Part shown: piece after piece, positions 1-36,518 of the stretch
Layout: every line of letters starts with the position of its first letter
Position numbering within the stretch: the first letter of the stretch is position 1
NCBI RefSeq assembly: GCF_988242995.1
Contig: NZ_OZ547043.1
DNA: 64,000 nt
Direction: 5' to 3' (one strand)
Program-made: the position numbers and the translations under genes
Notes under the pieces: model-generated
What the model saw: only the letters and a program-made list of their open reading frames with translations
Databases searched by the model: none
What the model was told of the DNA's origin: nothing

Positions 1-3000
1 TCCTGCCTGCGCCAGCTCGCCATATTGCGTACATAACGCCTGCAATTCTGGACGGTTTGCCGCCCATTCCCGCAGTGCATTTAGCGGCTGAGTCAATGCG
101 GCTTTCAACTGCGCATCGACCGGATACTCTGCATCCTGACGCGCGAGCGTCACTGCCAGTGCACTTTCCGGGCGATTCGCCAGCAGACGGTAGAGATAGA
201 GCGGACCGCCTGCTTTCGGCCCGGTGCCGGACAACCCTTCGCCGCCGAATGGCTGCACCCCGACCACTGCGCCCACCATATTACGGTTAACGTACAGGTT
301 ACCGACATGGGCCGAGCCAGTGACCTGGGCGATGGTTTCATCAATGCGCGTATGGACGCCAAGCGTCAGACCATAACCGGAAGCGTTAATTTGCTCGATC
401 AGCTCCGGCAGCTGGTTACGGTTATAACGCACCACATGCAGCACCGGACCAAAGACCTCTTTTTGCAATTCGGCAAAGTCATCCAGTTCAATCAGCGTCG
501 GGGCGACAAAGGTGCCGCTTTGCCATTCACGGGCATCTTCACTGTTTTCCCGCACTGCCTGGAACACCGGACGGCCTTTACTACGCATAGTCTGAATATG
601 ACGCTCAATATTGGCTTTCGCTTCGCTATCAATCACCGGACCGATATCGGTGGTCAGGCGACCAGGATTACCCATCCGGCATTCGGCCATTGCGCCGCGC
701 AGCATTTTCAACGTGTGGTCGGCAATCTCATCTTGCAGGCACAGCACGCGCAGTGCCGAACAACGCTGGCCCGCACTGTCGAACGCCGAGGCCAGCACAT
801 CTATTACTACTTGTTCGGTCAGGGCGGAGGAGTCGACAATCATCGCGTTCATACCGCCGGTTTCCGCGATGAGCGGAATAGGGCGACCCTGAGCGTCGAG
901 GCGGCTGGCGATATTGCGTTGCAGTAACGTAGCGACTTCGGTTGAACCGGTAAACATCACCCCGCGCACGCGATCATCACCCGTCAGTTGCGCGCCCACG
1001 GTTTCCCCCCGACCTGGCAGCAATTGCACCACGCCTGGCGGTACACCCGCCTCCACCAAAATGGCAATCCCTTGCGCGGCAATCAGCGGCGTTTGTTCTG
1101 CCGGTTTTGCCAGTACGCTGTTACCTGCCGCCAGTGCGGCAGCGATCTGCCCGGTGAAAATCGCCAGCGGGAAGTTCCACGGACTGATACATACCACAGG
1201 CCCTAATGGACGGTGGGTTTCGTTAGCGAAATCATCCCGCACCTGTCCGGCGTAGTAGTGGAGAAAATCGACCGCTTCGCGCACTTCGGCAATGGCGTTA
1301 CTGAAGGTTTTTCCGGCCTCACGCACCAGAATACCAATCAGTTGCTGCATCTGGCTTTCCATCAGCACGGCAGCGCGATGCAAAATTGCCGCGCGTTCAG
1401 CCGGAGGCGTGGCAAACCAGATTGGTGCGTTATTAACCGCACTTTCCAGCGCCTGTTCTACTTCACTCGGCGTGGCTTCGCGCACATAGCCCACAATATC
1501 TTTCGGCTCTGCCGGGTTAATAACGGGCGACATCTCACCAGCCGCGACCGATTGTTCCAGCATTGGCAAGGCCTGCCATTTTTGCAGTGCACTATTGAGC
1601 AGGGCAGAAGAGAGCGATGCCAGACGGTGTTCGTTAGCGAGATCCAGCCCTGCCGAGTTGTCGCGCCCGTGACCGTAAAGATCGCGCGGCAGGGGAATTT
1701 TCGGATGCGGTAATCCAGTTTGCCCTTCCTGTTGCGCCAGTTTTTCTACAGCAGTGACCGGATCGGCGACCAGTTCATCCAGGGGCAAAGAGGTGTCAGC
1801 AATACGGTTAACAAACGAGGTGTTAGCACCGTTTTCCAGCAGGCGACGCACCAGATACGCCAGCAGCGTTTCATGGGTACCGACAGGAGCATAAATACGA
1901 CACGGACGGTTAAGTTTGCCGTCGGCAACTTTCCCGGTGACCTGCTCATACAGTGGCTCGCCCATACCGTGCAGGCACTGGAACTCGTACTGACCCGGGT
2001 AGTAGTTCTGACCCGCCAGTTGATAAATTGCCGCCAGCGTATGGGCGTTATGCGTTGCGAACTGCGGGTAGATTAGATTCGGCACCGCCAGCAGCTTTTT
2101 CGCACAGGCGAGATATGAAACGTCGGTATACACCTTGCGGGTATAAACCGGATAACCTTCAAGGCCGTCCATCTGCGCGCGCTTGATTTCACTATCCCAG
2201 TACGCGCCTTTCACCAGGCGAATCATCAGACGGCGACGGCTGCGGGTGGCGAGATCAATCAGGTAATCAATCACCAGTGGGCAGCGTTTTTGATAAGCCT
2301 GAATAACAAAACCGATGCCGTTCCAGCCTGCCAGTTCCGGCTCGAAACAGAGTTTTTCCAGCAGATCGAGGGAGATCTCCAGACGATCGGCCTCTTCGGC
2401 ATCGATGTTAATACCAATATCGTACTGACGCGCCAGCAGGGTGAGTGATTTCAGACGTGGGTAAAGCTCTTCCATTACCCGGTCATACTGGGCGCGGCTG
2501 TAACGCGGATGCAGCGCCGACAGCTTGATTGAAATGCCCGGACCTTCATAGATGCCACGACCATTGGACGCTTTACCAATGGCGTGAATCGCCTGCTGAT
2601 AGGAAACCATATACGCCTGTGCATCTGCGGCGGTCAGCGCGGCTTCGCCCAGCATATCGTAGGAGTAACGGAAACCTTTCTCTTCCAGCTTGCGGGCATT
2701 GGCTAACGCTTCCGCGATGGTTTCGCCAGTGACGAACTGCTCGCCCATCAGGCGCATCGCCATATCCACACCTTTGCGGATCAGCGGTTCACCGCTCTTA
2801 CCGATAATGCGGTTCAGCGAGCGGGAGAGGCTGGCTTCGTTATGGGTGGAAACCAGTTTGCCGGTAAACAGCAGCCCCCAGGTGGCGGCATTAACAAACA
2901 GGGACGGGCTACGACCAATGTGTGACTGCCAGTTACCGTTGCTGATTTTGTCGCGAATTAACGCATCACGGGTGGCTTTGTCGGGAATACGCAACAACGC

Positions 3001-3510
3001 TTCTGCCAGACACATCAGCGCCACGCCTTCCTGCGATGACAGCGAAAACTCCTGCAATAACCCCTGGACCATACCTGCGCGACCACTGGCATTTTTTTGA
3101 TTACGCAGTTTATCGGCCAGTTGATATGCCAGTTTATGCGCCTGTTCAGCAACTGGCTGCGGCAGGCGGGCTTGTTCCAGCAGCATAGAAACCGCTTCGG
3201 TTTCCGGGCGGCGATAGGCAGCGGTGATAGCTGCGCGGGAAACCGACTGGGGCAAAATTTGCTCGGCAAAGTCGAGGAATGGCTGGTGTGGTTCCTCTGC
3301 CGGAGTGGGTGCTTCATCGCTCTCATTGGCAGCGCCAGAAAGCAGCGCAGGTAGCTCCGGAAGAGTATCGCTGTTTTCCAGTTGTTCAAGATAAGAAAAA
3401 ATCGCCTGCTTAATTAACCAGTGTGGCGTGCGATCGATACGTGTCGCGGCAGACTTAATACGCTCACGCGTCGCGTCGTCCAGCTTAACCCCCATGGTGG
3501 TGGTTCCCAT
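1..3510 (-). CDS. putA: PutA, bifunctional proline dehydrogenase / P5C dehydrogenase and put repressor; 3' end truncated by window edge
   Basis: Minus-strand frame runs from window edge to ATG at 3508-3510; N-terminus MGTTTMGVKLDD and window-edge residues match recalled PutA; not in ORF track because no stop inside window. Confidence 0.93.
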   Translation of the reverse strand, partial: MGTTTMGVKLDDATRERIKSAATRIDRTPHWLIKQAIFSYLEQLENSDTLPELPALLSGAANESDEAPTPAEEPHQPFLDFAEQILPQSVSRAAITAAYRRPETEAVSMLLEQARLPQPVAEQAHKLAYQLADKLRNQKNASGRAGMVQGLLQEFSLSSQEGVALMCLAEALLRIPDKATRDALIRDKISNGNWQSHIGRSPSLFVNAATWGLLFTGKLVSTHNEASLSRSLNRIIGKSGEPLIRKGVDMAMRLMGEQFVTGETIAEALANARKLEEKGFRYSYDMLGEAALTAADAQAYMVSYQQAIHAIGKASNGRGIYEGPGISIKLSALHPRYSRAQYDRVMEELYPRLKSLTLLARQYDIGINIDAEEADRLEISLDLLEKLCFEPELAGWNGIGFVIQAYQKRCPLVIDYLIDLATRSRRRLMIRLVKGAYWDSEIKRAQMDGLEGYPVYTRKVYTDVSYLACAKKLLAVPNLIYPQFATHNAHTLAAIYQLAGQNYYPGQYEFQCLHGMGEPLYEQVTGKVADGKLNRPCRIYAPVGTHETLLAYLVRRLLENGANTSFVNRIADTSLPLDELVADPVTAVEKLAQQEGQTGLPHPKIPLPRDLYGHGRDNSAGLDLANEHRLASLSSALLNSALQKWQALPMLEQSVAAGEMSPVINPAEPKDIVGYVREATPSEVEQALESAVNNAPIWFATPPAERAAILHRAAVLMESQMQQLIGILVREAGKTFSNAIAEVREAVDFLHYYAGQVRDDFANETHRPLGPVVCISPWNFPLAIFTGQIAAALAAGNSVLAKPAEQTPLIAAQGIAILVEAGVPPGVVQLLPGRGETVGAQLTGDDRVRGVMFTGSTEVATLLQRNIASRLDAQGRPIPLIAETGGMNAMIVDSSALTEQVVIDVLASAFDSAGQRCSALRVLCLQDEIADHTLKMLRGAMAECRMGNPGRLTTDIGPVIDSEAKANIERHIQTMRSKGRPVFQAVRENSEDAREWQSGTFVAPTLIELDDFAELQKEVFGPVLHVVRYNRNQLPELIEQINASGYGLTLGVHTRIDETIAQVTGSAHVGNLYVNRNMVGAVVGVQPFGGEGLSGTGPKAGGPLYLYRLLANRPESALAVTLARQDAEYPVDAQLKAALTQPLNALREWAANRPELQALCTQYGELAQAG

Positions 3511-3932
3511 GCCATTACTCCTGTTGTTCTGAAAGGTGCAACTTAACGTTATCGTGAAATATCCATGATGTTGCAACTTTGTGCAACCATGTTAAATGTG
3601 ACCTGCGTAGCAAGCTTAAAAATGAATGAAATGTTAATAAAAGAAATCGATATGACAGGGATTAAAAAAATAACTCAGACTTTTTCTCTGCGGCAGTTAA
3701 CATTTTTGAAAGGTGCAACCGCAAAAAATGTGAGAGAGTGCAACCTGATGAAAAATAGTGTCGCTGAGCACTAAAATTTAATGTAAATGGTGTGTTAAAT
3801 CGATTGTGAATAACCAGCGCTTCCGGCAGGATACGGTCGCCCTGGTAAAACATAAACTCTGCTACCCCGTTCCGGTGGCAGATATAACGGCAAGTTTCGA
3901 CATTGCCGATAATAATTTTTTGGAGACTTTAG
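3511..3932. promoter_or_regulatory. putA-putP divergent control region with five GTTGCA / TGCAAC PutA operator motifs
   Basis: Motifs at 3537-3542, 3570-3575, 3582-3587, 3714-3719, 3739-3744; AT-rich; lies between divergent putA and putP starts. Confidence 0.8.
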
Positions 3933-5441
<1,509 letters not shown>

Positions 5442-5485
5442 GGGAAGGCGTTTTACCGAAAATCCCACGTCATAATCAGAAGCAG

Positions 5486-5521
5486 GCAGAGGGCAATCAG
5501 TGATTGCCCTCTGCGTTTTTT
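5486..5521 (+). terminator. Rho-independent terminator after putP
   Basis: Inverted repeat GCAGAGGGCAATC..GATTGCCCTCTGC followed by T run. Confidence 0.7.
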
Positions 5522-5543
5522 CTCAAAATATTTTTACATTTTC

Positions 5544-5603
5544 TCATCATTATCACTACATTCCGCTTGTATTTTTCTTTGCCGTAATGATAATCGCTAT
5601 CAC
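5544..5603 (+). promoter_or_regulatory. Fur-box-like sites upstream of efeU
   Basis: TCATCATTATCAC (5544-5556) and GTAATGATAATCGCTATCAC (5584-5603) resemble the Fur consensus GATAATGATAATCATTATC; efeUOB is iron-regulated. Confidence 0.6.
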
Positions 5604-5660
5604 TGCGATTTACTTTTCTTTGCATAGATTGACTCAGAAAAACGTTTAAGGGTGGGTGGC

Positions 5661-6491
5661 ATGTTTGTTCCATTTCTCATTATGTTGCGCGAAGGACTTG
5701 AAGCCGCGCTGATTGTCAGTTTGATTGCCAGCTATCTTAAGCGTACCCAGCGAGGCCGATGGATTGGTGTGATGTGGATTGGCGTGTTGCTTGCCGCTGC
5801 GTTGTGCCTGGGCTTGGGTATCTTCATTAACGAAACCACCGGCGAATTTCCGCAAAAAGAACAGGAACTGTTTGAAGGTATCGTGGCGGTGATCGCCGTG
5901 GTGATCCTTACCTGGATGGTTTTCTGGATGCGCAAAGTGTCGCGCAACGTCAAAGTACAACTGGAGCAGGCAGTCGATAGCGCATTGCAGCGTGGAAATC
6001 ATCATGGCTGGGCGCTGGTGATGATGGTCTTTTTTGCCGTTGCAAGGGAGGGGCTGGAGTCGGTCTTTTTCCTGCTGGCGGCGTTTCAACAAGATGTCGG
6101 GATTTGGCCGCCGCTGGGTGCAATGCTCGGTCTTGCTACAGCCGTGGTGCTTGGCTTCCTGCTCTACTGGGGCGGTATTCGCCTCAATCTTGGTGCATTT
6201 TTTAAATGGACCAGTCTGTTTATTCTCTTCGTCGCCGCTGGGCTGGCAGCTGGTGCCATTCGCGCATTTCATGAAGCCGGATTGTGGAACCACTTTCAGG
6301 AAATCGCCTTCGATATGAGCGCGGTGCTCTCAACTCACTCGCTGTTTGGCACGCTGATGGAAGGGATTTTTGGCTATCAGGAAGCGCCAAGTGTCAGCGA
6401 AGTCGCCGTCTGGTTTATTTATCTCATCCCAGCGCTGGTGGCATTTGCGCTGCCGCCACGTGCAGGGGCGACAGCGTCTCGCTCCGCGTAA
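5661..6491 (+). CDS. efeU: EfeU ferrous iron permease (FTR1 family), intact reading frame
   Basis: Single uninterrupted frame; ATG at 5661 (ORF track begins at in-frame GTG 5652); multi-TM protein with REGLE-type motifs. Confidence 0.9.
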   Translation: MFVPFLIMLREGLEAALIVSLIASYLKRTQRGRWIGVMWIGVLLAAALCLGLGIFINETTGEFPQKEQELFEGIVAVIAVVILTWMVFWMRKVSRNVKVQLEQAVDSALQRGNHHGWALVMMVFFAVAREGLESVFFLLAAFQQDVGIWPPLGAMLGLATAVVLGFLLYWGGIRLNLGAFFKWTSLFILFVAAGLAAGAIRAFHEAGLWNHFQEIAFDMSAVLSTHSLFGTLMEGIFGYQEAPSVSEVAVWFIYLIPALVAFALPPRAGATASRSA

Positions 6492-6548
6492 CAAATACGA
6501 CGCAAACTCTTGCTTAGTTACAACATACTTTAAAGGGATAGTCTCGTC

Positions 6549-7676
6549 ATGACCATTAACTTCCGCCGTAACGCATTGCAGTTGAGCGTGGCTGCGCTGT
6601 TCTCTTCTGCTTTTATGGCTAACGCCGCCGATATTCCGCAAGTCAAAGTCACCGTGACGGATAAGCAGTGCGAACCGATGACCATTACGGTTAACGCCGG
6701 GAAAACACAGTTCATTATTCAGAACCACAGCCAGAAGGCGCTGGAGTGGGAGATCCTCAAAGGCGTGATGGTGGTGGAAGAGCGAGAAAATATCGCCCCT
6801 GGCTTTAGCCAGAAAATGACGGCGAATTTACAGCCTGGCGAATACGATATGACCTGCGGTCTGCTGACTAACCCGAAAGGGAAGTTGATCGTTAAAGGTG
6901 AAGCAACGGCGGATGCGGCGCAAAGCGATGCGCTGTTAAGTCTTGGTGGTGCAATTACTGCATATAAAGCGTATGTCATGGCGGAAACCACGCAGCTGGT
7001 GACCGACACCAAAGCCTTTACCGACGCTATTAAAGCAGGCGATATCGAAAAAGCAAAAGCACTGTATGCGCCGACGCGCCAGCACTATGAGCGCATTGAA
7101 CCGATTGCTGAACTGTTCTCCGATCTGGATGGTAGCATTGACGCCCGTGAAGATGATTACGAGCAAAAAGCCGCCGATCCAAAATTCACCGGTTTCCACC
7201 GTCTGGAAAAAGCATTGTTTGGCGATAACACCACCAAAGGGATGGATAAGTATGCCGACCAGCTTTATACCGATGTGGTCGATTTGCAAAAACGCATCAG
7301 TGAACTGGCTTTCCCTCCGTCAAAAGTGGTCGGCGGTGCAGCCGGACTGATTGAGGAAGTGGCAGCCAGCAAAATCAGCGGTGAAGAAGATCGCTACAGC
7401 CACACCGATCTGTGGGATTTCCAGGCTAACGTTGAAGGCTCGCAGAAAATTGTCGATCTGCTGCGTCCACAACTGCAAAAGGCCAACCCGGAACTGCTGG
7501 CAAAAGTCGATGCCAATTTCAAAAAGGTCGATACCATTCTGGCGAAATACCGTACTAAAGACGGTTTTGAAACCTACGACAAATTGACCGATGCTGACCG
7601 TAATGCGCTGAAAGGGCCGATTACTGCGCTGGCGGAAGATCTGGCGCAACTTCGCGGTGTGCTGGGGCTGGATTAA
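6549..7676 (+). CDS. efeO: EfeO periplasmic iron-binding component
   Basis: 375 aa with N-terminal signal peptide; matches recalled EfeO. Confidence 0.94.
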
Positions 7677-7681
7677 GCGTT

Positions 7682-8953
7682 ATGCAGTATGAAGATGAAA
7701 ACGGCGTGAATGAACCGTCACGCCGACGTTTACTGAAAGGGATTGGTGCGCTGGCGCTGGCGGGAAGTTGTCCGGTCGCTCATGCACAAAAAACGCAAAG
7801 TGCACCGGGTACGCTTTCACCGGATGCACGCAATGAGAAACAGCTGTTTTATGGTGAGCATCAGGCAGGGATCCTGACGCCACAACAGGCCGCAATGATG
7901 CTGGTGGCGTTTGATGTGCTTGCCAGCGATAAAGCCGATCTTGAGCGGTTGTTTCGCTTGTTGACTCAGCGTTTTGCTTTTCTGACTCAGGGCGGAGCAG
8001 CACCAGAAACGCCAAATCCGCGCCTGCCACCACTCGATTCCGGCATTCTTGGCGGCTACATTGCGCCCGATAATCTCACCATCACATTATCGGTGGGCCA
8101 CTCATTGTTTGATGAGCGCTTTGGCCTTGCGTCGCAGATGCCGAAAAAGTTGCAGAAGATGACGCGTTTCCCCAACGACTCGCTTGATGCAGCATTATGT
8201 CATGGTGATGTGTTGCTACAAATTTGCGCCAACACCCAGGATACGGTGATCCATGCGCTGCGCGATATCATCAAACACACGCCGGATTTGCTCAGTGTGC
8301 GCTGGAAGCGGGAAGGGTTTATTTCCGATCACGCGGCGCGTAGTAAAGGCAAAGAGACGCCGATTAATTTGCTGGGTTTCAAAGACGGCACTGCCAATCC
8401 CGATAGCCAGAATGATAAGTTGATGCAAAAAGTGGTGTGGGTGACGGCAGATCAGCAGGAGCCTGCGTGGACAATCGGCGGCAGCTACCAGGCGGTGCGG
8501 TTGATTCAGTTTCGGGTGGAATTTTGGGACAGAACGCCGCTGAAAGAACAGCAGACGATATTTGGGCGTGATAAGCAAACCGGCGCGCCGCTGGGAATGC
8601 AGCATGAGCATGATGTTCCCGATTACGCCAGCGATCCGGAAGGGAAGGTGATTGCGCTGGACAGCCATATCCGGCTGGCGAATCCCCGCACGCCAGAGAG
8701 TGAGTCAAGTCTGATGCTGCGTCGTGGCTACAGTTATTCGTTGGGCGTCACCAACTCCGGACAACTGGATATGGGGCTACTGTTTGTCTGCTATCAACAC
8801 GATCTGGAAAAAGGCTTCCTGACAGTACAAAAAAGGCTCAATGGCGAAGCGCTGGAGGAATACGTTAAACCTATCGGCGGCGGTTATTTTTTTTCGCTGC
8901 CGGGAGTGAAGGACGCGAACGATTATCTCGGAAGCGCGTTATTACAGGTTTGA
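7682..8953 (+). CDS. efeB: EfeB Tat-exported dye-decolorising (DyP-type) haem peroxidase
   Basis: 423 aa; twin-arginine motif SRRRLLKG near N-terminus. Confidence 0.94.
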
Positions 8954-8964
8954 ACGACGCAAAT

Positions 8965-9058
8965 ATGCCCGATGCGCAGGTTTATCGGGCATGAGTTTTG
9001 TGCACAAATTATTAATCACTTGTAGGTCGGGTAAGGCGTTCACGCCGCATCCGGCAAG
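8965..9058. repeat. Palindromic unit plus REP element in efeB-phoH spacer
   Basis: ATGCCCGAT..ATCGGGCAT palindrome and GTAGGTCGGGTAAGGCGTTCACGCCGCATCCGGCA typical REP sequence. Confidence 0.6.
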
Positions 9059-9108
9059 TTTTTACCAGTACTGCGAATCCTGCTGAAAGCACACAGCTTT
9101 TTTCATCA

Positions 9109-9126
9109 CTGTCATCACTCTGTCAT
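9109..9126 (+). promoter_or_regulatory. Pho box (PhoB binding site) of phoH promoter
   Basis: CTGTCAT CACT CTGTCAT: two perfect 7-bp direct repeats with 4-bp spacer, about 150 bp upstream of phoH ATG. Confidence 0.8.
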
Positions 9127-9275
9127 CTTTCCAGCAGAAACTAATGTCACTGAAATGGGTGTTTATCGTTAAACACAAGTAAATATAATGTTGCAATGAA
9201 TGCGAGTTCTGTTGTAATTATTAAGTAGCAGCGGAAGTTCCCGGCAGTGATAGTCAGTCACTATGGAGATCGCGG

Positions 9276-10340
9276 ATGGTAACGTCCTGTACTGGACATG
9301 TTTTAGATAATCAGCGCGCCACCACTCGCGGAGATTTCTCCTCCGGTAGCAACTTCGTCACTTTGTATTTTCAACCTCATCCTTTCTTTTCATGTGTTAC
9401 CGACGCCGTAAACGGTGCGCGTAGCCGTTTTTCGGCATTTTATCCAAAAGCAAACTATGGCTTACAAGGAAGCCAACCCTCTGATGTTCGTGCGCATAAT
9501 CGCGCTGCCAACGGCGCGTGTGATGAATACAAACAACTCAAGGTGCTCTCCATGGGAAGACAAAAAGCAGTGATCAAAGCTCGTCGCGAGGCAAAACGTG
9601 TGCTGAGACGGGATTCGCGCAGCCATAAGCAGCGTGAAGAAGAATCGGTCACCTCGCTTGTGCAGATGAGCGGCGTAGAAGCCATTGGTATGGCCCGCGA
9701 CAGTCGCGATACCTCGCCCATCCTCGCGCGAAATGAAGCGCAATTGCACTATCTGAAGGCTATTGAGAGTAAGCAGCTGATATTCGCCACGGGCGAAGCC
9801 GGGTGCGGAAAAACCTGGATCAGCGCAGCAAAAGCGGCAGAGGCCCTGATACATAAGGATGTCGACAGGATTATCGTCACCCGTCCAGTTCTGCAAGCCG
9901 ATGAAGATCTTGGCTTCTTACCTGGAGATATCGCAGAAAAGTTTGCTCCCTATTTTCGTCCGGTCTACGACGTGCTGGTCCGGCGCTTAGGGGCTTCCTT
10001 TATGCAGTACTGCCTGCGACCGGAAATAGGGAAGGTGGAAATTGCGCCGTTCGCCTATATGCGTGGACGTACCTTTGAAAATGCAGTCGTCATTCTTGAC
10101 GAGGCGCAGAATGTGACTGCCGCGCAAATGAAAATGTTTTTAACCCGCCTCGGGGAGAACGTGACGGTTATCGTCAACGGTGATATCACGCAATGCGATT
10201 TGCCTCGCGGCGTGCGCTCCGGATTAAGTGACGCGCTGGAACGTTTCGAAGAAGATGAAATGGTCGGGATCGTCCGATTCGGTAAAGAGGATTGCGTACG
10301 TTCGGCACTTTGCCAACGTACGCTACATGCATACAGTTAA
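9276..10340 (+). CDS. phoH: PhoH, phosphate-starvation-inducible ATP-binding protein
   Basis: 354 aa, Walker A GEAGCGKT; matches recalled PhoH. Confidence 0.95.
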   Translation: MVTSCTGHVLDNQRATTRGDFSSGSNFVTLYFQPHPFFSCVTDAVNGARSRFSAFYPKANYGLQGSQPSDVRAHNRAANGACDEYKQLKVLSMGRQKAVIKARREAKRVLRRDSRSHKQREEESVTSLVQMSGVEAIGMARDSRDTSPILARNEAQLHYLKAIESKQLIFATGEAGCGKTWISAAKAAEALIHKDVDRIIVTRPVLQADEDLGFLPGDIAEKFAPYFRPVYDVLVRRLGASFMQYCLRPEIGKVEIAPFAYMRGRTFENAVVILDEAQNVTAAQMKMFLTRLGENVTVIVNGDITQCDLPRGVRSGLSDALERFEEDEMVGIVRFGKEDCVRSALCQRTLHAYS

Positions 10341-10358
10341 GTGTATTATCGGTACAGA

Positions 10359-10388
10359 GCCCGGGCGAACCGGGCTTTGTTTTATTTC
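10359..10388 (+). terminator. Rho-independent terminator after phoH
   Basis: GCCCGG GCGAA CCGGGC hairpin followed by TTTGTTTTATTT. Confidence 0.7.
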
Positions 10389-10902
10389 ATTAACAGCAAA
10401 GACTTTCACTTCAGGTTAACGTTCAGGGGGGCGACTTTGAGCGTGTTGATAAGCTGAAATGAATTCTGGTTTAGATACTCTTACCAGGCATTTTTCGTCA
10501 TAGCACCCGACCAGTGTAATGCCGCCAGCGCGGAGAGTTTTTTGCCTATCTTTTTCCAGCCATTCAACCTGTACAGGAGGTCTGGTGCCAATTTTGCGTA
10601 TGAGGTTTAATCAGCAATGGGCCATAATTTGACTGACTGATTAACACCGAATATATTCTCCTGATTTTATTTTTTAGGGATAATATTAAAAATATAAGGT
10701 TAATCTTAATTAATTCTTCAGCTAATATTGTGTGTTGTTATTTTTTGTGGACGGCAAGCCGCAATGGCAAAATAGGTATGGTTGTAATAATCAAAACATG
10801 ATACTAACTATATATAGATCGTTGAATTGTTGGCATGTAACTCGCTACAGCGAGTAGCGTTAGTAATGAAATATAATCAACATGGATAGGTGAAGATTAA
10901 TT

Positions 10903-11589
10903 ATGAGCTTTATGGTTTTTGTAACTTGTTTGACAATTGCATTTGTCGCCGGTTTTGCTGTTGCCAGAAAATTGACACTCCGAAAAGTTGCCTCATCGGT
11001 AATCATCACTAGATCGCAACCAGTCCCTTCCTCTGCAACTTCCCCTGCGGCTAAGGCGTCGACAAGGAGCTATACACCGCAGAAAACCTATCGTGACTCT
11101 CGTTGGCAAGAACGAGATGAGTTGTTCCAGGGAATGGTTGCCGAAGGTATTTTATTGGAAGGAAAAGAGTGGTTAATTACGCGTTGTGAAAAAATTTATT
11201 TTGATAATCTGGAGAAATGGTTTGGACATTATTGTCATATCCATTGCCAGGTCTCTCTGGGGCGCTTGATCAACTTTCCAGAACAACCCGAGTTTAGCGA
11301 AGAAGAAAGAAAGCGTTTCTTTGCAATTTATAATGGAATGGCAATGGATTATGTTCTGGTTTCAAAGAAGAACAATAAAATAGTCTGTGTTATTGAGCTG
11401 GATGATCCGAGTCATGAAAGGGCAGATCGCATTATTCGTGACCGTTGGTTGAATACGATTATGACTATTGCACGGGTGCCTTTTGTACGAGCTTCTGTCA
11501 CTAAATTGGATGAAATCCCTCCGGTCTGGGATACCCGTGACAAAATTCGCCCATTAGCCGCGGCGACAAAGGGTGAACCGTTGCATTAA
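10903..11589 (+). CDS. Hypothetical membrane-anchored protein with C-terminal PD-(D/E)xK-like nuclease-type domain (resembles DUF2726 / NERD-like fold); orphan accessory gene
   Basis: 228 aa ORF; AGGTGA RBS about 10 nt before ATG; N-terminal hydrophobic helix (aa 4-24), S/T/P-rich linker, C-terminal block MDYVLV..VIELDDPSHERADRIIRDRWL..VPFVR; visibly AT-rich; not recognised as a K-12 gene. Confidence 0.65.
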   Translation: MSFMVFVTCLTIAFVAGFAVARKLTLRKVASSVIITRSQPVPSSATSPAAKASTRSYTPQKTYRDSRWQERDELFQGMVAEGILLEGKEWLITRCEKIYFDNLEKWFGHYCHIHCQVSLGRLINFPEQPEFSEEERKRFFAIYNGMAMDYVLVSKKNNKIVCVIELDDPSHERADRIIRDRWLNTIMTIARVPFVRASVTKLDEIPPVWDTRDKIRPLAAATKGEPLH

Positions 11590-11596
11590 CTAAGTA

Positions 11597-11674
11597 CCCC
11601 GGTCGGGGCTCCTCATCCCCCCGGTGTGTGCAATATACGAAAAAAAAGCCCGTACTTTCGTACGAGCTCTTCTT
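11597..11674. repeat. Copy 1 of a 78-bp module that equals the serX downstream terminator region
   Basis: Near-identical (3 differences) to 12489-12565, which sits directly 3' of intact serX; contains CCCCGGTCGGGG and CGTAC..GTACG hairpins and an A8/T8 run. Confidence 0.7.
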
Positions 11675-12385
11675 GTGCACAGAAAACCCCCAGCTAGGCT
11701 GGGGGTTCCGGAAAGCTTTCAGCTTTGAGCCAGTTATTAAAACCCCTTTTGATTTGTTAAAACACCTTGCGGTCTGGCAACTGCAAGTGTCAAACAAGAA
11801 ATCAAAAGGGGGTCCCAATGGGGGACGAAAAGAGCTTAGCGCACACCCGCTGGAACTGTAAATATCACATAGTTTTTGCGCCGAAATACCGAAGACTGGC
11901 GTTTTACGGAGAGAAGCGTAGGGCGATAGGCAGTATTTTGAGAAAGCTGTGTGAGTGGAAAAGCGTACGGATTCTGGAAGCAGAGTGCTGCGCAGATCAT
12001 ATCCATATGCTTGTGGAAATCCCACCCAAAATGAGCGTATCCGGCTTTATGGGATATCTGAAAGGGAAAAGCAGTCTGATGCTTTACGAGCAGTTTGGGG
12101 ATTTGAAATTCAAATACAGAAACAGGGAGTTCTGGTGCCGAGGGTACTATGTCGATACGGTGGGTAAGAACACGGCGAAGATACAGGACTACATAAAGCA
12201 CCAGCTTGAAGAGGATAAAATGGGAGAGCAGTTATCGATTCCCTATCCGGGCAGCCCGTTTACGGGCCGTAAGTAACGAAGTTGGATGCAAATGTCAGAT
12301 CGTGTGCGCCTGTTAGGGCGCGGCTGGTAACAGAGCCTTACAGGCGCATTTGAAAAACCTCCGGCTATGCCGGAGGATATTTATT
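11675..12385 (+). mobile_element. IS200-like insertion sequence (IS200/IS605 family), about 0.71 kb
   Basis: Single 152-aa HuH transposase; subterminal hairpins CCCCCAGC-TAG-GCTGGGGG (11687-11705) and CCTCCGGC-TAT-GCCGGAGG (12358-12376); no terminal inverted repeats; size as expected for IS200; exact ends approximate. Confidence 0.8.
11818..12276 (+). CDS. tnpA: IS200 transposase TnpA (Y1 HuH)
   Basis: 152 aa MGDEKSLAHTRWNCKYHIVFAPKYRR..HIHML..RGYYVDTVG; HuH motif and catalytic Tyr region; ORF track extends upstream to an in-frame start at 11767. Confidence 0.9.
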   Translation: MGDEKSLAHTRWNCKYHIVFAPKYRRLAFYGEKRRAIGSILRKLCEWKSVRILEAECCADHIHMLVEIPPKMSVSGFMGYLKGKSSLMLYEQFGDLKFKYRNREFWCRGYYVDTVGKNTAKIQDYIKHQLEEDKMGEQLSIPYPGSPFTGRK

Positions 12386-12391
12386 TAAATA

Positions 12392-12488
12392 TGGCGGTGA
12401 GGGGGGGATTGACTCGCTTCGCTCGCCCTGCGGGCAGCCCGCTCACTGCGTTCACGGTCTGTCCAACTGGCTGTCGCCAGTTGTCGAA
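12392..12488 (-). repeat. Degenerate copy of serX 3' end (19-bp exact direct repeat 12392-12410) plus 78 bp of unrelated sequence; att-like scar
   Basis: TGGCGGTGAGGGGGGGATT is identical to the 3' end of intact serX at 12572-12590; upstream part does not fold into a tRNA. Confidence 0.6.
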
Positions 12489-12565
12489 CCCCGGTCGGGG
12501 CTTCTCATCCCCCGGTGTGTGCAATATACGAAAAAAAAGCCCGTACCTTCGTACGAGCTCTTCTT
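12489..12565 (-). terminator. serX downstream hairpin/terminator region (copy 2 of the 78-bp module)
   Basis: On the serX sense strand the tRNA is followed by GCTCGTACGAAGGTACGGGC hairpin and T8. Confidence 0.65.
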
Positions 12566-12571
12566 TAAAGA

Positions 12572-12659
12572 TGGCGGTGAGGGGGGGATTCGAACCCCCG
12601 ATACGTTGCCGTATACACACTTTCCAGGCGTGCTCCTTCAGCCACTCGGACACCTCACC
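12572..12659 (-). tRNA. serX: tRNA-Ser (serX type)
   Basis: 88 nt, sense strand GGTGAGGTGTCCGAGTGGCTGAAGGAGCACGCCTGGAAAGTGTGTATACGGCAACGTATCGGGGGTTCGAATCCCCCCCTCACCGCCA; long variable arm typical of tRNA-Ser, encoded CCA. Confidence 0.9.
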
Positions 12660-12693
12660 AAATTGTTGTTCCTGTCTTGCTGGAACGGGCGCT

Positions 12694-12722
12694 AATTTAG
12701 GGAAATCATGACCTGAGGTCAA
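12694..12722 (-). promoter_or_regulatory. Putative sigma70 promoter of serX
   Basis: On minus strand TTGACC (12717-12722), 17-bp spacer, TAAATT (12694-12699), GC-rich discriminator, about 30 nt before the tRNA 5' end. Confidence 0.5.
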
Positions 12723-12853
12723 CAAACTTTTTTAAAAAATCGCGTGTTTATTCAAACTTCAATCAATATGCAGTTTTAATAAGCGAAATCTGCTTTTTTT
12801 GCCACCGACCACGGATTTGTTATGCTGGTGGCTTTTGTAGATCATAACGATAA

Positions 12854-13831
<978 letters not shown>

Positions 13832-23948: not shown

Positions 23949-24230
23949 ATATGGTTAACTAATCTCGGATTTTTCGTCTTATCCCTGTCGGGTTATGCCT
24001 TTAGGCTTGTTGCCATAGCGACACCGACCTGACCGCGCCAGGCGCAGGCTTCAAGGTTTTAATGCATAGCATCATCGCTACCACTAACCAGAATGGAAGC
24101 GTCTGTAAGACGGTTGATAAATAAATTTGCTGGCAAACCCTACACGAAGTCGATGCTTCTGTCTTTAGGAGAAGCACGGAAAGTGAAAACGGTTGCAATC
24201 AGGTGCTTAATCCATGAGCCAGCGTGCTGA

Positions 24231-28413
<4,183 letters not shown>

Positions 28414-28423
28414 AAACGTAGTT

Positions 28424-28521
28424 GCCTGATGCGCTACGCTTATCAGGCCTACATCGCTCCTGCAACGTGTTGATTTTGCAAGATTTTGTAGGTCGGATAA
28501 GGCGTTCACGCCACATCTGGC
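28424..28521. repeat. Two REP elements (BIME-like) after opgH
   Basis: GCCTGATGCGCTACGCTTATCAGGC and GTAGGTCGGATAAGGCGTTCACGCCACATCTGGC. Confidence 0.6.
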
Positions 28522-28543
28522 AAAAACAACGAGCCAATAAAAA

Positions 28544-28569
28544 TACCGGCGTTATGCCGGTATTTTTTT
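28544..28569 (+). terminator. Rho-independent terminator upstream of yceK
   Basis: ACCGGC GTTA TGCCGGT hairpin followed by T7. Confidence 0.6.
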
Positions 28570-28585
28570 ACGGAAGAGGTATCAA

Positions 28586-28813
28586 ATGCGTTTAATTGTG
28601 GTGAGCATCATGGTGACCTTGCTGAGTGGCTGTGGCAGCATTATTAGTCGCACTATACCGGGGCAGGGGCATGGCAACCAATATTATCCCGGTGTGCAAT
28701 GGGATGTGCGTGACTCCGCCTGGCGTTATGTCACAATCCTTGATCTGCCATTCTCCCTGGTTTTTGATACTTTACTGCTGCCGATCGACATTCATCATGG
28801 CCCGTATGAGTAA
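28586..28813 (+). CDS. yceK: YceK lipoprotein
   Basis: 75 aa, lipobox LSGC. Confidence 0.9.
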   Translation: MRLIVVSIMVTLLSGCGSIISRTIPGQGHGNQYYPGVQWDVRDSAWRYVTILDLPFSLVFDTLLLPIDIHHGPYE

Positions 28814-29188
28814 TTAACGTTCATCCCACTCATCAGCTGCTGCGCGTCCTTCCTCGGTATCCAGCGGTGGCTCAAGCTGAAATTCCCCCTCGTCCCATTC
28901 ATGTAATGTATTCTCTTCCTGCCACTCCTGGCGGATCTCTATCTCATCATAGTCGCCATCAAAGACACTTTGCGCGGCTTCACCGCTAAGCATAGGTAAA
29001 CATTCACCTTCTTCCCCTTCGTCGGCAAAAAACTCAACTTGCCACATGATGTCGCCGTCCTGCAAAACGTATTTTTGGGCATTGAACTGTTGCACATTCG
29101 CATCTTCGGCGTCGATGCCGGGGTTGTCTGCAAGAAATTCTTCGCGTGCAGCGTCAATGGCTTCTTCAAGCGTTGCGTACATGGTCAT
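28814..29188 (-). CDS. msyB: MsyB acidic protein
   Basis: 124 aa, extremely D/E-rich. Confidence 0.92.
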   Translation of the reverse strand: MTMYATLEEAIDAAREEFLADNPGIDAEDANVQQFNAQKYVLQDGDIMWQVEFFADEGEEGECLPMLSGEAAQSVFDGDYDEIEIRQEWQEENTLHEWDEGEFQLEPPLDTEEGRAAADEWDER

Positions 29189-29270
29189 CACGATTCTCCC
29201 TTTGAGTTGATGAGGTTTCAGGGAAAAGGATAGCTGATTCTCCGCTTTTGCAAGTATGAAAGGCGAAAAA

Positions 29271-30497
29271 TCAGTTCGATACCTGGGGTATTCGACGACG
29301 ACGTAGACTGTTCCATGAATAGGCTGCGTTGAATAACACTACGCCAGCGGTGACGAGAAATACCGCTCTGAAACCGTAGTTCGCTGAAATCGCGGCTCCC
29401 ATCAATGGTCCGGTAACGTTTCCAATATCACGAAACGACTGGTTATAGCTGAAGATACGCCCGGCTATTTGGTTGCTCGAGTTGTAAACCAACAGTGTCT
29501 GTACGGCGGGGAGTAGTGCACCATCGGCGGCACCGAGCAAAAAACGTAAAATCCCAAGTTGTAATGGCGTCTGAACGTATGACATTGGGATCAACAGCAG
29601 TACAGAAAAGATCAGCGCCGTAATCAGGATCTTTTCGGGGCCGATTCGATCGCCAAGTTTGCCGAGTCGTGGTGCACTCAGCAGAGCCGCCACGCCTGGC
29701 ACCGAGGCGATCATGCCACTGATAAAGGCGACGTTACTGACGTTACCCGCCAGTTCGCGGACATACAGCGTCAGAATGGGGGCAATTGAGCCCGTCGCCA
29801 CCTGGATGATTAACGTAGTGACAAACAGGCTGAGTACCAGTTTCGGGTTTTTAAGTGATGTCACCACTTCCCGCATGTGCAGCATCTCTTTTTTGCTGAC
29901 CGGCTGGAATTTTTCTCTGATGCAAAACAGGGTGACGAAAAAGCAGAGTATGAGCACACTGGCGGTAATAAAGAATACCGGACGTAAGCCGTAGCTATCG
30001 GCGAGCAGGCCGCCAGCCATTGGGCCGAGCAACGCACCACTAACGCCGCCTGTGGAGAGCGTACCCAGCGCCCAGCCGCTTTTATTACGCGGTACTTGTG
30101 TGGCGATAAGAGCATTAGCGTTGGGGACAAATCCGCCAAGTAACCCAAGAAGCGCCCGTAGGATCAAAAACTGCCAGATATTTTGTGCCAGCCCCATCAA
30201 CACCATCACGATGCCCATGCCGAGGGCAGAGCGTAATAGCATGAGTTTGCGGCCTTTACGGTCGGCGAGTCCACCCCAAAACGGTGAGGCGATGGCCGAA
30301 AATAAAAATGTAATGCTGAAGACAATACCGGACCACATATTCAAGGCGGAGTGGCCCGTAACGCCAAGCTGCTCAACGTAGAGGGGTAAGAAGGGCATTA
30401 CCAGGCTGAAGGCGGCACCCGTAAGAAAACAGCCTAGCCAGGCGACGATCAGGTTTCGTTTCCAGTTTATAGGGGTGTCATTTTCACAGGGTGACAT
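29271..30497 (-). CDS. mdtG: MdtG MFS multidrug efflux transporter
   Basis: 408 aa, 12-TM MFS. Confidence 0.95.
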
Positions 30498-30630
30498 AGC
30501 AATCCGCTGTTGGTGCGCCAGGCGCGGTGAACATAAGAAGAAAAGATAAGCACACTAATTATGCGCCCGACTTCCAGGGGGCGCAATCCAGAGAGCTTTT
30601 ATCGCTAAATCAGGGGGATTTGCTGTGGTA

Positions 30631-30661
30631 ATGCCGGATACCCTTCTGAAGCATCCGGCAT
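30631..30661. terminator. Palindromic hairpin between mdtG start and lpxL stop (likely lpxL terminator)
   Basis: ATGCCGGAT..ATCCGGCAT inverted repeat. Confidence 0.5.
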
Positions 30662-30668
30662 GGGAGAT

Positions 30669-31589
30669 TTAATAGCGTGAAGGAACGCCTTCCGGGCGTG
30701 TTTTAAAGCGACGGTGTAACCACATATACTGCTCTGGTGCCATCATGATGCATTTTTCGACCACTTTGTTCATCCACGCGGCGGTGGTTTCGGCATCATC
30801 CAGCGGCGGAGAACACTCTGGCGGCAGCATAATCAACTGATACCCTTTGCCATCTGGCTTACGGCGTGGAACGAAGGGCACCAGACATGCGCCGGACATC
30901 CGTGCCAGCATCCAGGTTCCGGTCGTGGTCGCAGCCTGCTCAACGGCAAACAACGGGACGAAAACGCTTGAGCGCGGGCCGTAATCATGATCCGGTGCGT
31001 ACCAGACCACTTCGCCTTTTTTCAGGGCTTTAATCATGCCTTTTAAATCTTTGCGGTCGAGCATCGATTTATTTGAGCGCAAACGGCCCCAGGTTTGTAG
31101 CCAGTCAATCAGTGGATTATCGTTCGGGCGGTAAACGCCAATCCCCGGTTCCTGCATACCAAACTGCCGCGCACCCAGCTCCAGTGTCAGAAAATGGATG
31201 CCAACTAACAGGATGCCGCGTTTTTGCGCCTGCACGTCACGAATGTGTTCCATGCCGATCACTTCCGTCCAGCGGGCGATTCTGCGGTCCGGCCAGAACC
31301 ACGCCATGCCAGTTTCCATCAGTCCCATGCCAACGGATTCGAAATTCTTCACCACCATTTTACGGCGTTCTTGTTCGCTCATTTCCGGGAAGCACAGTTC
31401 CAGGTTGCGATGCACAATTTTTGCGCGTCGTTTCATAAAACGTAACGCAAGTTTTCCTAATCCACAACCGAGGCGGTAGATAACCGGGTAGGGCAATTGC
31501 ACGACTAACCAAAGTACGCCAATACCCAACCAGGTTAACCAATAACGCGGATGAAGTAGTGCGGTGGAGAACTTGGGTAGATTCGTCAT
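30669..31589 (-). CDS. lpxL: LpxL lipid A lauroyl acyltransferase
   Basis: 306 aa from ATG at 31587-31589 ([17 protein letters not shown]); ORF track begins upstream. Confidence 0.95.
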
Positions 31590-31813
31590 ATCAATCCTGT
31601 TTTTCAACCTATACGGGCAATTGTATGTATTGTCGCATTTTTTCGCCCGCAACCAAAATTTGTGGCTGAAGACTGGGCGAAATTGCCGCGCTTGTAAATA
31701 ACAAATAATTTTTAATGCGCAAATGTAGCGTAAAATGTGTGGATGTTAATTATCGATAATTGCTATATCATGCCGCGGATTTTTACTTTCCCATCTCGCA
31801 GGAACCGTACACC

Positions 31814-32866
31814 ATGCCAGTGTTACACAACCGCATTTCCAACGACGCGTTAAAAGCCAAAATGTTGGCTGAGAGCGAACCGCGAACCACCATTTCGTTT
31901 TATAAGTATTTCCACATCGCCGATCCTAAGGCGACCCGTGACGCTTTATATCAGCTGTTTACCGCGCTGAATGTTTTTGGGCGAGTGTATCTGGCGCATG
32001 AGGGTGTTAACGCGCAAATCAGCGTACCTGCGAGCAATGTTGAAACATTTCGCGCACAGCTCTATGCCTTCGACCCGGCTTTAGAGGGCTTACGCCTGAA
32101 TATCGCGTTGGATGATGACGGGAAATCCTTCTGGGTTCTGCGCATGAAGGTACGCGATCGCATTGTTGCCGACGGTATTGACGATCCTCACTTTGATGCC
32201 AGCAATGTGGGTGAGTATCTGCAAGCGGCGGAAGTGAACGCCATGCTTGACGATCCCGATGCATTGTTTATCGACATGCGTAACCACTATGAGTATGAAG
32301 TGGGGCACTTTGAAAACGCGCTGGAAATTCCGGCAGATACCTTCCGTGAGCAGCTGCCAAAAGCAGTCGAGATGATGCAGGCACATAAAGATAAAAAAAT
32401 CGTTATGTACTGCACCGGTGGCATTCGTTGTGAAAAGGCCAGTGCCTGGATGAAACATAACGGATTCAATAAAGTCTGGCATATCGAGGGCGGAATTATT
32501 GAATACGCCCGCAAGGCGCGCGAGCAGGGTTTACCGGTACGTTTTATTGGCAAAAATTTTGTTTTTGACGAGCGGATGGGCGAACGTATATCTGATGAGA
32601 TTATCGCGCATTGCCACCAGTGCGGTGCGCCGTGCGACAGCCATACCAACTGTAAAAATGATGGCTGCCACCTGCTGTTTATTCAGTGTCCAGTATGTGC
32701 GGAAAAATACAAAGGTTGTTGTAGTGAGATTTGCTGCGAAGAAAGCGCGTTACCGCCTGAAGAACAGCGACGCCGTCGGGCAGGACGTGAAAATGGCAAT
32801 AAGATCTTTAATAAGTCTCGTGGACGTCTGAATACAACACTGGGCATTCCTGATCCAACAGAATAA
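31814..32866 (+). CDS. trhO: TrhO (YceA) rhodanese-domain tRNA uridine hydroxylase
   Basis: 350 aa from ATG 31814 ([16 protein letters not shown]); C-terminal Cys-rich tail. Confidence 0.93.
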
Positions 32867-32872
32867 ATATCA

Positions 32873-32897
32873 TTGCCGGATGCGTGTCATCCGGCAA
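32873..32897. terminator. Bidirectional hairpin between convergent trhO and yceI
   Basis: TTGCCGGATG CGTGT CATCCGGCAA. Confidence 0.55.
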
Positions 32898-32907
32898 CAT
32901 TTCACTC

Positions 32908-33483
32908 TTACTTCTGCTGTACGCCTTCCACTGAAATAATCAGATCCACTTCCTGAGAAGCTGGACCTAAATCTGTTTTGATATTGAAGTCCTTGAGCTT
33001 AATTTTGCCTTCGGCCTCGAAGCCTGCACGTTTACCACCCCACGGGTCGTCGCCTTGACCAATTAATTTCGCTTCCAGCGTGACGGGTTTGGTTACGCCA
33101 TTCAGCGTCAGATCGCCGGTAATATCCAGTTCGTCACCGTCTTTCTTCACGCTGGTGGAGGTGAATGTTGCCTGTGGATATTTTGCGGTATTGAGGAAAT
33201 CTGCACTGCGAAGATGTTTATCGCGTTCGGCGTGATTAGTATCGACGCTGGTGGTGTTAATTGTCACATTCACTTTATCGGCAGCTGGATTTTTTTCATC
33301 AAAGGTAAAAGTACCGTCGAAATCTTTAAAGGTGCCATATAACCAGCTATAGCCAAGATGCTGGATGCGGAAGTTAACAAAGGCGTGCTGACCTTCTTTG
33401 TCAATTTTGTAATCGGCGGCAACCGCTGAACCGGCAGAGAACATCAGGGAAGCGAAGGTTAAACCAAGCAGGCTTTTTTTCAT
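32908..33483 (-). CDS. yceI: YceI periplasmic polyisoprenoid-binding protein
   Basis: 191 aa with signal peptide. Confidence 0.95.
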
Positions 33484-33486
33484 TTT

Positions 33487-34053
33487 TTATACTCCATAGT
33501 CAGATGACGACTTTCCCAGCATGCGCTTCAGAGTGTCGTCTTTATCGATGAAATGATGCTTCAGGGCCATAAATCCATGCATAACGGACAGTACTACGAC
33601 GCTCCACGCGAGCCAAAAATGCAGGGCACCGGCAAAGTCAGCCTGTGCGCCAGCGTCGGCGAGGGTCGCGGGGACGTCAAACCAGCCAAAAACGCTGATC
33701 GGTTTACCATCGGCAGTTGAGATCAGATAGCCGCTGATGCCGATGGCGAACAGCAATAAGTACAATGCGAGATGTCCAGCCTTTGCGCCAAGACGAGTCA
33801 TGGGCGAATAACTCTGCAGCGGACCCGGCGGTGGAGATATGACGCGCCACAGAACGCGAATAACCAGCCCCATCATTAACAAAATGCCGATGCTTTTATG
33901 CACTTCGGGTGCTTTGTGATACCAGCCATCGTAATAACTGAGCGTGACCATCCACAGACCTAAAGCAAACATGCCGTAGACAATAATTGCGCTTAGCCAA
34001 TGGAAGGCCGCAGATATAACACCATAGCGTTCAGGGGTATTTGTGAATGACAT
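33487..34053 (-). CDS. yceJ: YceJ cytochrome b561 family protein
   Basis: 188 aa from ATG at 34051-34053 (MSFTNTPERYGVISAAFHW). Confidence 0.9.
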   Translation of the reverse strand: MSFTNTPERYGVISAAFHWLSAIIVYGMFALGLWMVTLSYYDGWYHKAPEVHKSIGILLMMGLVIRVLWRVISPPPGPLQSYSPMTRLGAKAGHLALYLLLFAIGISGYLISTADGKPISVFGWFDVPATLADAGAQADFAGALHFWLAWSVVVLSVMHGFMALKHHFIDKDDTLKRMLGKSSSDYGV

Positions 34054-34313
34054 AAGTGCATCCAAAACGAATTTGCGAGAGAAAGAAAATGGCGTGTCGG
34101 AGAATGAAATGCAACACAAAAATAACAAATTGAATGATATTTATTTTTATTTCAATAATTTTGAATTAATAATGAAAGAATCTTCATAAGTTTAGTGGAT
34201 TCAGCATTTGGAAGGTCTGGTGAGTGCTGTAGAGGCAGGAAGAATCTCATTCAATTTTTCACGCTAAATGAAAGGGAGATTAAATATTTGTCAGTTTATG
34301 TCAGTACGGAAAA

Positions 34314-34427
34314 CTAAAAATAAAACACATAGATCAGATCCATAATTGCCAACAATCCCCAGAGAAAAAGATAAAGCATCAGATGCTCGCGAATATTATT
34401 GATGAGATAGTGCAACAGCCGACGCAT
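34314..34427 (-). CDS. yceO: YceO small membrane protein
   Basis: 37-aa frame [37 protein letters not shown], below ORF-track cutoff, found by reading; recalled K-12 length is longer, so the 3' end may differ. Confidence 0.5.
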
Positions 34428-34474
34428 TAAATACTCCTGTAAAAACGGCCTCATTCTGGAGGCCGTAATGATGA

Positions 34475-35593
34475 TTATTGGAAGCGGGAAAGCCTGAATG
34501 GCGTCAAATCAAAATCGCTTTTTTTGTCTTGCGCAAAATCGGCAGCTATTTCCCCTAAAACTGACGCAAATTTAAAACCGTGCCCACTCAGGCCGGTAAT
34601 GAGCAGTGTATTATCGTGGCCGGGTAGGGTATCGATAATAAAATCTTCGTCAGGCGAATTATCATAGGTGCAGGCAGCGCCGTACAGGCAGCAACCGATA
34701 CCCGGCAATACATTGCGCAAGAACGGGAAGGCTTCCGAACCATCGCTGACCACTTCCGCAAACGGAACACGTTCATCCGCTGAATGGATAACCTGGCCTC
34801 CGTTATGTTTGCCAATCTTCAACGCGTCGTTTTCTGCCGGAAAACCATAATATTGATCGCCATTGGGCAGTTCACCGGTAAACGCCGGGAATTTATTCTT
34901 CACGCTATAGCGACCATCGGCCTGATACCAGGCAAATACTTTGCGTATGGGCTGGACAGGCAGCTCCGGGAGCAGGTCTTTTACCCATGTTCCCGCGCAG
35001 ACAATCGCTTTTTTCGCCTGATAATAACCGTCAGCCGTTTCAATAGTTACGCCATCATCGTCATGACGAATTGCGGTGACCGGGCAGTTGAACAGCTGCG
35101 CACAGCCCGCTTCCTTCGCCAGTTGGATCCAGGTTTTAATCGCCAGTTCGCTGCGCAAAAAACCGGAATCAGTCTCAAATAAGCCGATGTAGTTGTCCGG
35201 GACGCGTATTTCTGGCCAGCGGGCCATAATCCCTTGCGCATCGAGCTTTTCAACGTTGAGTTGCCATTGTTTGGCGCTGTGGGCGACGTTGGCGAGAAAT
35301 GTGGAATCAGCCGGGCCAAGGTTAATGACGCCAGAGCGTACAAAAATGGGATCTTCTTCGTTGTGGCGGGAGAGTTCATCCCACAGCGTTTGCGCGCGGA
35401 GAACCAGTGGGACATACTTTTCGCCTTCACCATAAGCATGGCGAATTAATCGCGTATCGCCGTGGTGGCTGCCGTGTTGATGCGGTGGCATATGGGCGTC
35501 GGTCATAAGCACGTTTAAACCGGCGCGGGTTGCATAATACCCGGCGGCAGCGCCTACGGAACCGCTGCCAATAATGATGAGATCGTATTTCAT
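34475..35593 (-). CDS. solA: SolA N-methyl-L-tryptophan oxidase
   Basis: 372 aa, N-terminal GSGSVG FAD-binding motif. Confidence 0.95.
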
Positions 35594-35707
35594 TTTTTTC
35601 TCTCTGCTCTCATGGTTTAAGCAGAGTAATTAACTGAATGCAGATATACAACCCAGAAATGGTAAAGGCACCGGTGAGGTGCCTTTTGGGTGGATGGTCA
35701 TGTCATG

Positions 35708-36214: not shown

Positions 36215-36230
36215 GCCGGGGCGACCCGGC
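36215..36230 (-). terminator. dinI terminator hairpin
   Basis: GCCGGGGCGACCCGGC flanked by A/T runs immediately after dinI stop. Confidence 0.55.
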
Positions 36231-36251
36231 AAAAACAAAAATCACTGCATA

Positions 36252-36497: not shown

Positions 36498-36518
36498 AAT
36501 AGCCCCCTGTTGAATATA

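Follow-up and report, generated by a model that had tools for sequence, protein, structure and literature searches.

An intact efeU gene heads a most likely functional efeUOB operon in an Escherichia coli lineage distinct from K-12

The iron permease EfeU belongs to the Ftr1/OFeT family, together with the permeases of the yeast Ftr1p/Fet3p system and of other OFeT systems (FtrABCD, P19-cFtr1, FetMP and EfeUOB of B. subtilis). These permeases carry two REXXE motifs, which are essential in yeast Ftr1p. Like the other OFeT permeases, EfeU has a redox partner in the periplasm or outside the cell; in place of a multicopper oxidase, EfeU is paired with a cupredoxin-M75 protein and a DyP peroxidase. 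The efeUOB operon is repressed by Fe2+-Fur.

EfeU is described as an inner-membrane iron permease with seven transmembrane helices, EfeO as a Sec-exported cupredoxin/M75 protein required for Efe-mediated uptake, and EfeB as a Tat-exported haem peroxidase of the DyP type (PMC9174327). Uptake of Fe2+ by EfeU or EfeUOB, stimulated by low pH, goes back to Grosse et al. 2006 (Mol Microbiol 62:120) and Cao 2007 as these are summarised in PMC9174327. In E. coli O157:H7 the system is functional and regulated by CpxAR, according to the title of Cao et al. 2007 (Mol Microbiol 65:857). The frameshift in efeU of strain K-12 and the function of EfeU(OB) are both covered in the literature (PMC2808357, PMC7549933, PMC9174327, PMC9600279); this frameshift and the intact wild-type state have been documented since 2006-2007 (Grosse 2006; Cao 2007).

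We analyzed a stretch of E. coli DNA of 64,000 nucleotides, hereafter called the window, which contains an efeUOB locus with the following features.

3933..5441: putP, upstream of efeU.
5661..6491, plus strand: efeU, an Ftr1/OFeT-family inner-membrane iron permease (ATG start, 276 codons and a stop, 831 nt).
6549..7676, plus strand: efeO, a periplasmic cupredoxin and peptidase-M75 protein of 375 aa, which has an HxxE motif (FHRLE) and an N-terminus resembling a signal peptide.
7682..8953, plus strand: efeB, a Tat-exported DyP-type haem peroxidase / deferrochelatase of 423 aa.
8964..8993, plus strand: a terminator-like hairpin directly 3' of efeB (11-pair stem, weak T tail), a consensus match only.
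9276..10340: phoH, downstream of efeB.

We conclude, with a probability of about 0.93, that 5661..6491 is a wild-type intact efeU, the first gene of an efeUOB operon between putP and phoH, that the lesion known from K-12 was never present in it, and that the system is most likely functional. The gene order putP-efeU-efeO-efeB-phoH is standard for the E. coli locus, as in the annotation of MG1655. The three efe genes lie on the same strand, separated by 57 nt (efeU-efeO) and 5 nt (efeO-efeB), and the hairpin at 8964..8993 is a probable end of the efeUOB transcript.

A sequence-only reading of the window had described efeU as a single frame of 276 aa at 5661-6491, and the list of open reading frames reproduces both the position and the length. 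The open frame spans 5652..6491 on the plus strand and would encode 279 aa if read from its GTG start. An antisense frame of 215 aa (5646..6293, minus strand) overlaps efeU and was judged most likely to be a shadow frame of the real gene.

The protein belongs to the EfeU/Ftr1 (OFeT) family, with profile matches running nearly end to end and above the curated cutoffs. It scores 331.2 bits against the NCBIfam EfeU equivalog NF041756 (cutoff 255), 351.7 bits against the EfeU/Ftr1 family model TIGR00145 (cutoff 303.8), and 300.3 bits against Pfam FTR1 PF03239, which covers residues 1-275 of 276. Both REXXE motifs read REGLE and occupy residues 10-14 and 129-133. In a simple Kyte-Doolittle scan, with windows of 19 residues and a threshold of 1.6, six clear hydrophobic segments were detected, at about residues 1-24, 32-60, 68-94, 146-173, 177-204 and 242-266; the REGLE-bearing segment at about 116-140 falls below the threshold. 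Such a profile would be compatible with the seven helices given in PMC9174327. No relative of EfeU with a solved structure was detectable in the PDB by sequence search.

The partner genes are also complete. EfeO matches NF007697 with 774 bits over residues 1-375 of 375, and the Pfam domains Cupredoxin_1 and Peptidase_M75 were found on a gene identical to the efeO of the window. EfeB matches TIGR01412 over its full length (616 bits, cutoff 428) and retains the twin-arginine motif SRRRLLKG together with Asp235, His329 and Arg347. The locus therefore has the tripartite content of EfeUOB, namely efeU followed by efeO (cupredoxin and M75) and efeB (Tat-exported DyP peroxidase).

The efeU gene of K-12 MG1655 (ycdN, b4490; NC_000913.3) is annotated as a pseudogene and has 830 nt, compared with 831 nt in the window. 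In a pairwise alignment of the two genes there is a single indel, located at the following site.

5766..5767, plus strand: the K-12 frameshift site, a GG dinucleotide in codon 36 (GGT, Gly), of which one G is lost in K-12.

The loss of this G from codon 36 shifts the K-12 frame, and translation from the ATG yields MFVPF...RGRWIV before a stop at codon 37, that is, a stub of 36 residues. The earlier statement that K-12 efeU is made cryptic by a frameshift is thus correct, and the comparison with K-12 that had been proposed as its check places the indel at 5766/5767, so the K-12 allele is not identical in frame. Since the window keeps GG where K-12 has a single G, its efeU is not the K-12 allele. 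The two genes differ at 17 other sites, all of them third codon positions and all synonymous, and after restoration of the G the K-12 protein is identical to that of the window at 276 of 276 residues. Seventeen silent and no replacement changes show strong purifying selection on efeU until the very recent lesion in K-12. Overall, the efeU region of the window is diverged from K-12 by about 2%.

The comparison with two other strains gives a similar picture of the operon. In O157:H7 the efeUOB operon occupies the same position, after putP and before phoH, and EfeU is identical to that of the window over all 276 residues. EfeO of O157:H7 differs at 2 of 375 residues and EfeB at 7 of 423, and the nucleotide identity of efeUOB is 97.05% (~3% divergence). 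Nissle 1917 also has an intact EfeU of 276 aa, which differs from the window protein by three substitutions (M8I, A263V, A276M), and its efeUOB genes are 96.6% identical to those of the window at the nucleotide level. Five residues of the window EfeB (L55, S151, P338, S405 and Q422) are found in none of K-12, O157:H7 and Nissle, which share the same residue at each of these positions. Public assemblies contain the exact EfeB protein of the window in 146 blocks, which points to a common circulating natural allele and not to a private lesion.

The putP-efeU spacer differs in length between strains. It has 219 nt in the window and 542 nt in K-12, where 337 extra bases are present; it is equally compact in Nissle 1917 (219 nt, 95.4% identical), while in O157:H7 it reaches ~2.7 kb and contains a hypothetical gene of 1344 nt on the opposite strand. 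The comparison covered positions 5441-5660 of the window and positions 2814-3356, 1767-4439 and 4220-4439 of the extracted loci L001, L002 and L003, respectively. Among the window, Nissle, K-12 and O157:H7, the spacer is structurally polymorphic. The extra bases of K-12 include GC-rich palindromes resembling REP elements. In a sample of 40 evenly spaced matches, the whole compact spacer was covered in 9.

Scans of the spacer in the window against consensus sequences yielded four elements. The Fur, CpxR and promoter coordinates come from these scans and not from published mapping.

5486..5514, plus strand: a terminator-like hairpin located 3' of putP (stop at 5441), with a 13-pair stem containing 8 G-C pairs and followed by a T-run, GTTTTTTCTC.
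5533..5562, plus strand: a sigma-70 promoter-like site, TTTACA-18-TACATT, with 9 of 12 matches.
5583..5601, plus strand: a candidate Fur box, CGTAATGATAATCGCTATC, 60-78 nt upstream of the efeU ATG.
5609..5623, minus strand: a CpxR-box-like direct repeat, GCAAA-N5-GTAAA, with 9 of 10 matches to GTAAA-N5-GTAAA.

The hairpin looks like a putP terminator that would separate this gene from the control region of efeU; the K-12 sequence differs at this position. The sigma-70-like site is the only one found in the control region, and 0.6 such sites are expected in shuffled sequences. Because this match is no better than the shuffled expectation, we do not claim an efeU promoter. The candidate Fur box agrees with the 19-bp Fur consensus GATAATGATAATCATTATC at 15 of 19 positions and ranks first among the ~128,000 positions on both strands of the window; the next-best matches (14/19) are found at two places, both inside putP. 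The Fur-box-like sequence predicted upstream of efeU was therefore recovered, as the best candidate operator in 64 kb, and it is identical in K-12. The efeU gene is listed among those negatively regulated by CpxR (PMC9600279), and such repression may act through the direct repeat at 5609..5623. From position 5558 to the efeU ATG the window differs from K-12 by one substitution, and positions 5441-5557 are unrelated to K-12 or poorly aligned with it. No RNA elements were found in the efeU region by an Rfam scan of the whole window at gathering thresholds.

Taken with the systems described in O157:H7 and Nissle 1917, these features suggest how the operon may work in this strain. EfeUOB would serve as a ferrous-iron uptake system whose expression is under Fe2+-Fur and CpxAR repression and rises at low pH. 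By analogy with Ftr1p-Fet3p, we speculate that EfeO and EfeB oxidise or otherwise handle Fe2+ in the periplasm and hand the iron to EfeU, where the two REXXE motifs could line the translocation path. The expression, regulation and transport activity of EfeUOB in this strain are what we infer from its sequence. The proposal that the strain has a working EfeUOB system appears plausible on the grounds that EfeU is identical to that of O157:H7, that efeO and efeB are full-length with their key motifs, and that the candidate Fur box is conserved. As the K-12 lesion was probably never present in this strain, the system is most likely functional.

We also determined how the two states of codon 36 are distributed in E. 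coli. The 89-mer with the K-12 deletion occurs exactly in 368 of the 5417 complete E. coli records, and the intact 90-mer occurs exactly in 3343. Among the remaining records, every sampled match covers 90 bases and differs by substitutions only, so the extra G is kept in those genomes. The first 60 deletion carriers listed are K-12 laboratory strains (MG1655, DH5alpha, C600, J53, DH1, NCM3722 and others) or have genomes of K-12 size (4.46-4.79 Mb). The intact gene is the rule, being found in ~93% of complete E. coli genomes and nearly all non-K-12 ones. The sequence-only reading had presented the intact frame as worthy of note; the frame is indeed intact, and at ~93% of complete genomes its presence is not notable. 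The efeU of the window represents the textbook wild-type condition of an operon that is well described, and the result is correct yet ordinary and already known.

It is K-12 that forms the exception at efeU, with the deletion in 368 of 5417 complete records and almost exclusively laboratory strains among the carriers listed. A model or phenotype prediction carried over from K-12 would consequently be wrong in omitting the EfeUOB transporter. A low-pH route for ferrous iron, probably in working order, should be attributed to the strain studied here; otherwise the result has mainly annotation value. The deletion of a G in codon 36 also provides a clean one-base marker that separates K-12 derivatives from other E. 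coli.

Some individual genomes stand out. The food isolate TUM12357 (NZ_CP134370.1, chicken meat), whose genome of 5.03 Mb is much larger than that of K-12, is a deletion carrier that does not look like a laboratory strain; its efeU, annotated as frameshifted, agrees with the K-12 gene at every base and has the 1-nt deletion (compared at 4440-5269 of the extracted locus L004). Either the lesion is present in natural relatives of K-12, or TUM12357 contains K-12-derived DNA. In strain F2_81 (NZ_CP043542.1, pig) the match to the codon-36 90-mer ends after its first 45-53 bases, which suggests an independent internal disruption of efeU by an insertion or a deletion. Matches to the efeU region on plasmid-class records account for 7 of 5419 matching places, and 9 of 5426 E. 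coli genomes have no match to this region at all.

The window as a whole does not come from a K-12 derivative, in agreement with the earlier reading. Besides the indel, the 17 synonymous sites of efeU and the spacer length (219 vs 542 nt), this is evident from the identity of the efeU region to complete E. coli genomes, which does not exceed ~98.7%. For positions 3000-12000 the best complete genome, strain ST2747, is 98.7% identical, and the best identity with full coverage is 96.5%; we take the ST2747 genomes to represent cryptic clade I. Positions 24000-34000, on the other hand, are 99.7% identical to many ordinary E. coli genomes. Sliding identity to Ecol_316, one of these genomes, lies between 94.5% and 100% per kb and is 99.7-100% per kb over 27000-39000, a profile consistent with the usual recombinational mosaic; relatedness across 3000-54000 is mosaic. 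Three NCBI drafts match positions 1682-11749 at 99.99-100% (GCA_022849085.1, at 100%, GCA_002464975.1 and GCA_017769725.1). A 50-mer taken from efeB had no exact counterpart among the species-representative genomes. With at most 98.7% identity to complete genomes and 99.99-100% to drafts, the lineage appears to be a type of E. coli that has no close complete genome in the searched collection.

Downstream of phoH the window has the order phoH - DUF2726 gene - IS200-like element - tRNA-Ser - ghrA (examined over 10340-12854), with the following features.

10903-11589: the DUF2726 gene, between phoH and ghrA.
11767-12276: a Y1 transposase ORF of the IS200-like element, with a match to Rfam STnc490 at 11685-11808.
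12572-12659, minus strand: tRNA-Ser(GGA).

The pgaABCD and ycdT genes, which follow phoH on the K-12 map, are absent beside phoH in the window.

An intact frame might also be expected in a K-12 derivative whose frameshift has reverted, or after a sequencing or assembly error that restored the G. A single-base lesion makes this formally possible, but reversion or error would leave the 17 further synonymous differences within efeU alone, the 337 extra bases of the K-12 spacer and the absence of pgaABCD/ycdT beside phoH to be accounted for, and three independent NCBI drafts agree with the window at 99.99-100% over 1682-11749. The alignment to K-12 and the agreement of the drafts have already refuted this explanation, and we give it practically no weight. 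The frame could instead be intact while EfeUOB is inactive or altered in this lineage, through substitutions in EfeB and EfeO or through the different upstream region. The five EfeB residues unlike all three reference strains, the two EfeO residues unlike O157:H7 and the divergence of the distal control region (5441-5557) from K-12 fit such a loss or change. However, EfeB keeps its catalytic and haem residues along with its Tat motif, the EfeO and EfeB models are matched over their full length far above the cutoffs, and the exact EfeB is common in circulation (146 blocks). The proximal ~100 nt of the control region, including the Fur box, are as in K-12, and Nissle 1917, with an efeU reported to be functional (Grosse 2006), has a spacer of the same compact length, 219 nt. 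Inactivity or alteration of the operon is accordingly very unlikely.

A further departure from the wild-type reading would be that putP-efeUOB-phoH is a divergent allele block, imported by recombination and associated with altered EfeB activity or operon regulation. It would draw on the identity of at most ~98.7% here against 99.7% at a distance of 20 kb, on the five EfeB residues and on the compact control region; we regard it as improbable. Finally, the main role of the operon could be, instead of Fe2+ import, the extraction of haem iron by EfeB as a deferrochelatase, with EfeU only importing the released iron. EfeB is reported to take the iron out of haem without breaking the tetrapyrrole (Letoffe 2009, as summarised in PMC9174327), and the NCBIfam name of the protein is 'deferrochelatase/peroxidase'. 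Grosse 2006 and Cao 2007, as cited elsewhere, describe Fe2+ uptake, but both roles may coexist, and each needs an intact EfeU. We consider a primarily haem-directed operon unlikely, though somewhat less so than the imported block, and retain the reading of 5661..6491 as a wild-type efeU at the head of a most likely functional ferrous-iron uptake operon.

The DNA downstream of the operon shows several further peculiarities. The IS200-like element is the single IS element noticed among the ORFs of the window, in which the flg, csgD and csgG frames are intact. On these grounds Shigella, considered as a source for want of a close match among complete E. coli genomes, was judged unlikely. Draft assemblies of the lineage break exactly at IS200, and Ecol_316 has the same phoH-ghrA arrangement as the window minus this element. 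A full-length Rfam match (193 bits) to Ysr251, a family of Yersinia antisense sRNAs, was found at 10142-10335 on the minus strand, antisense to the 3' end of phoH.
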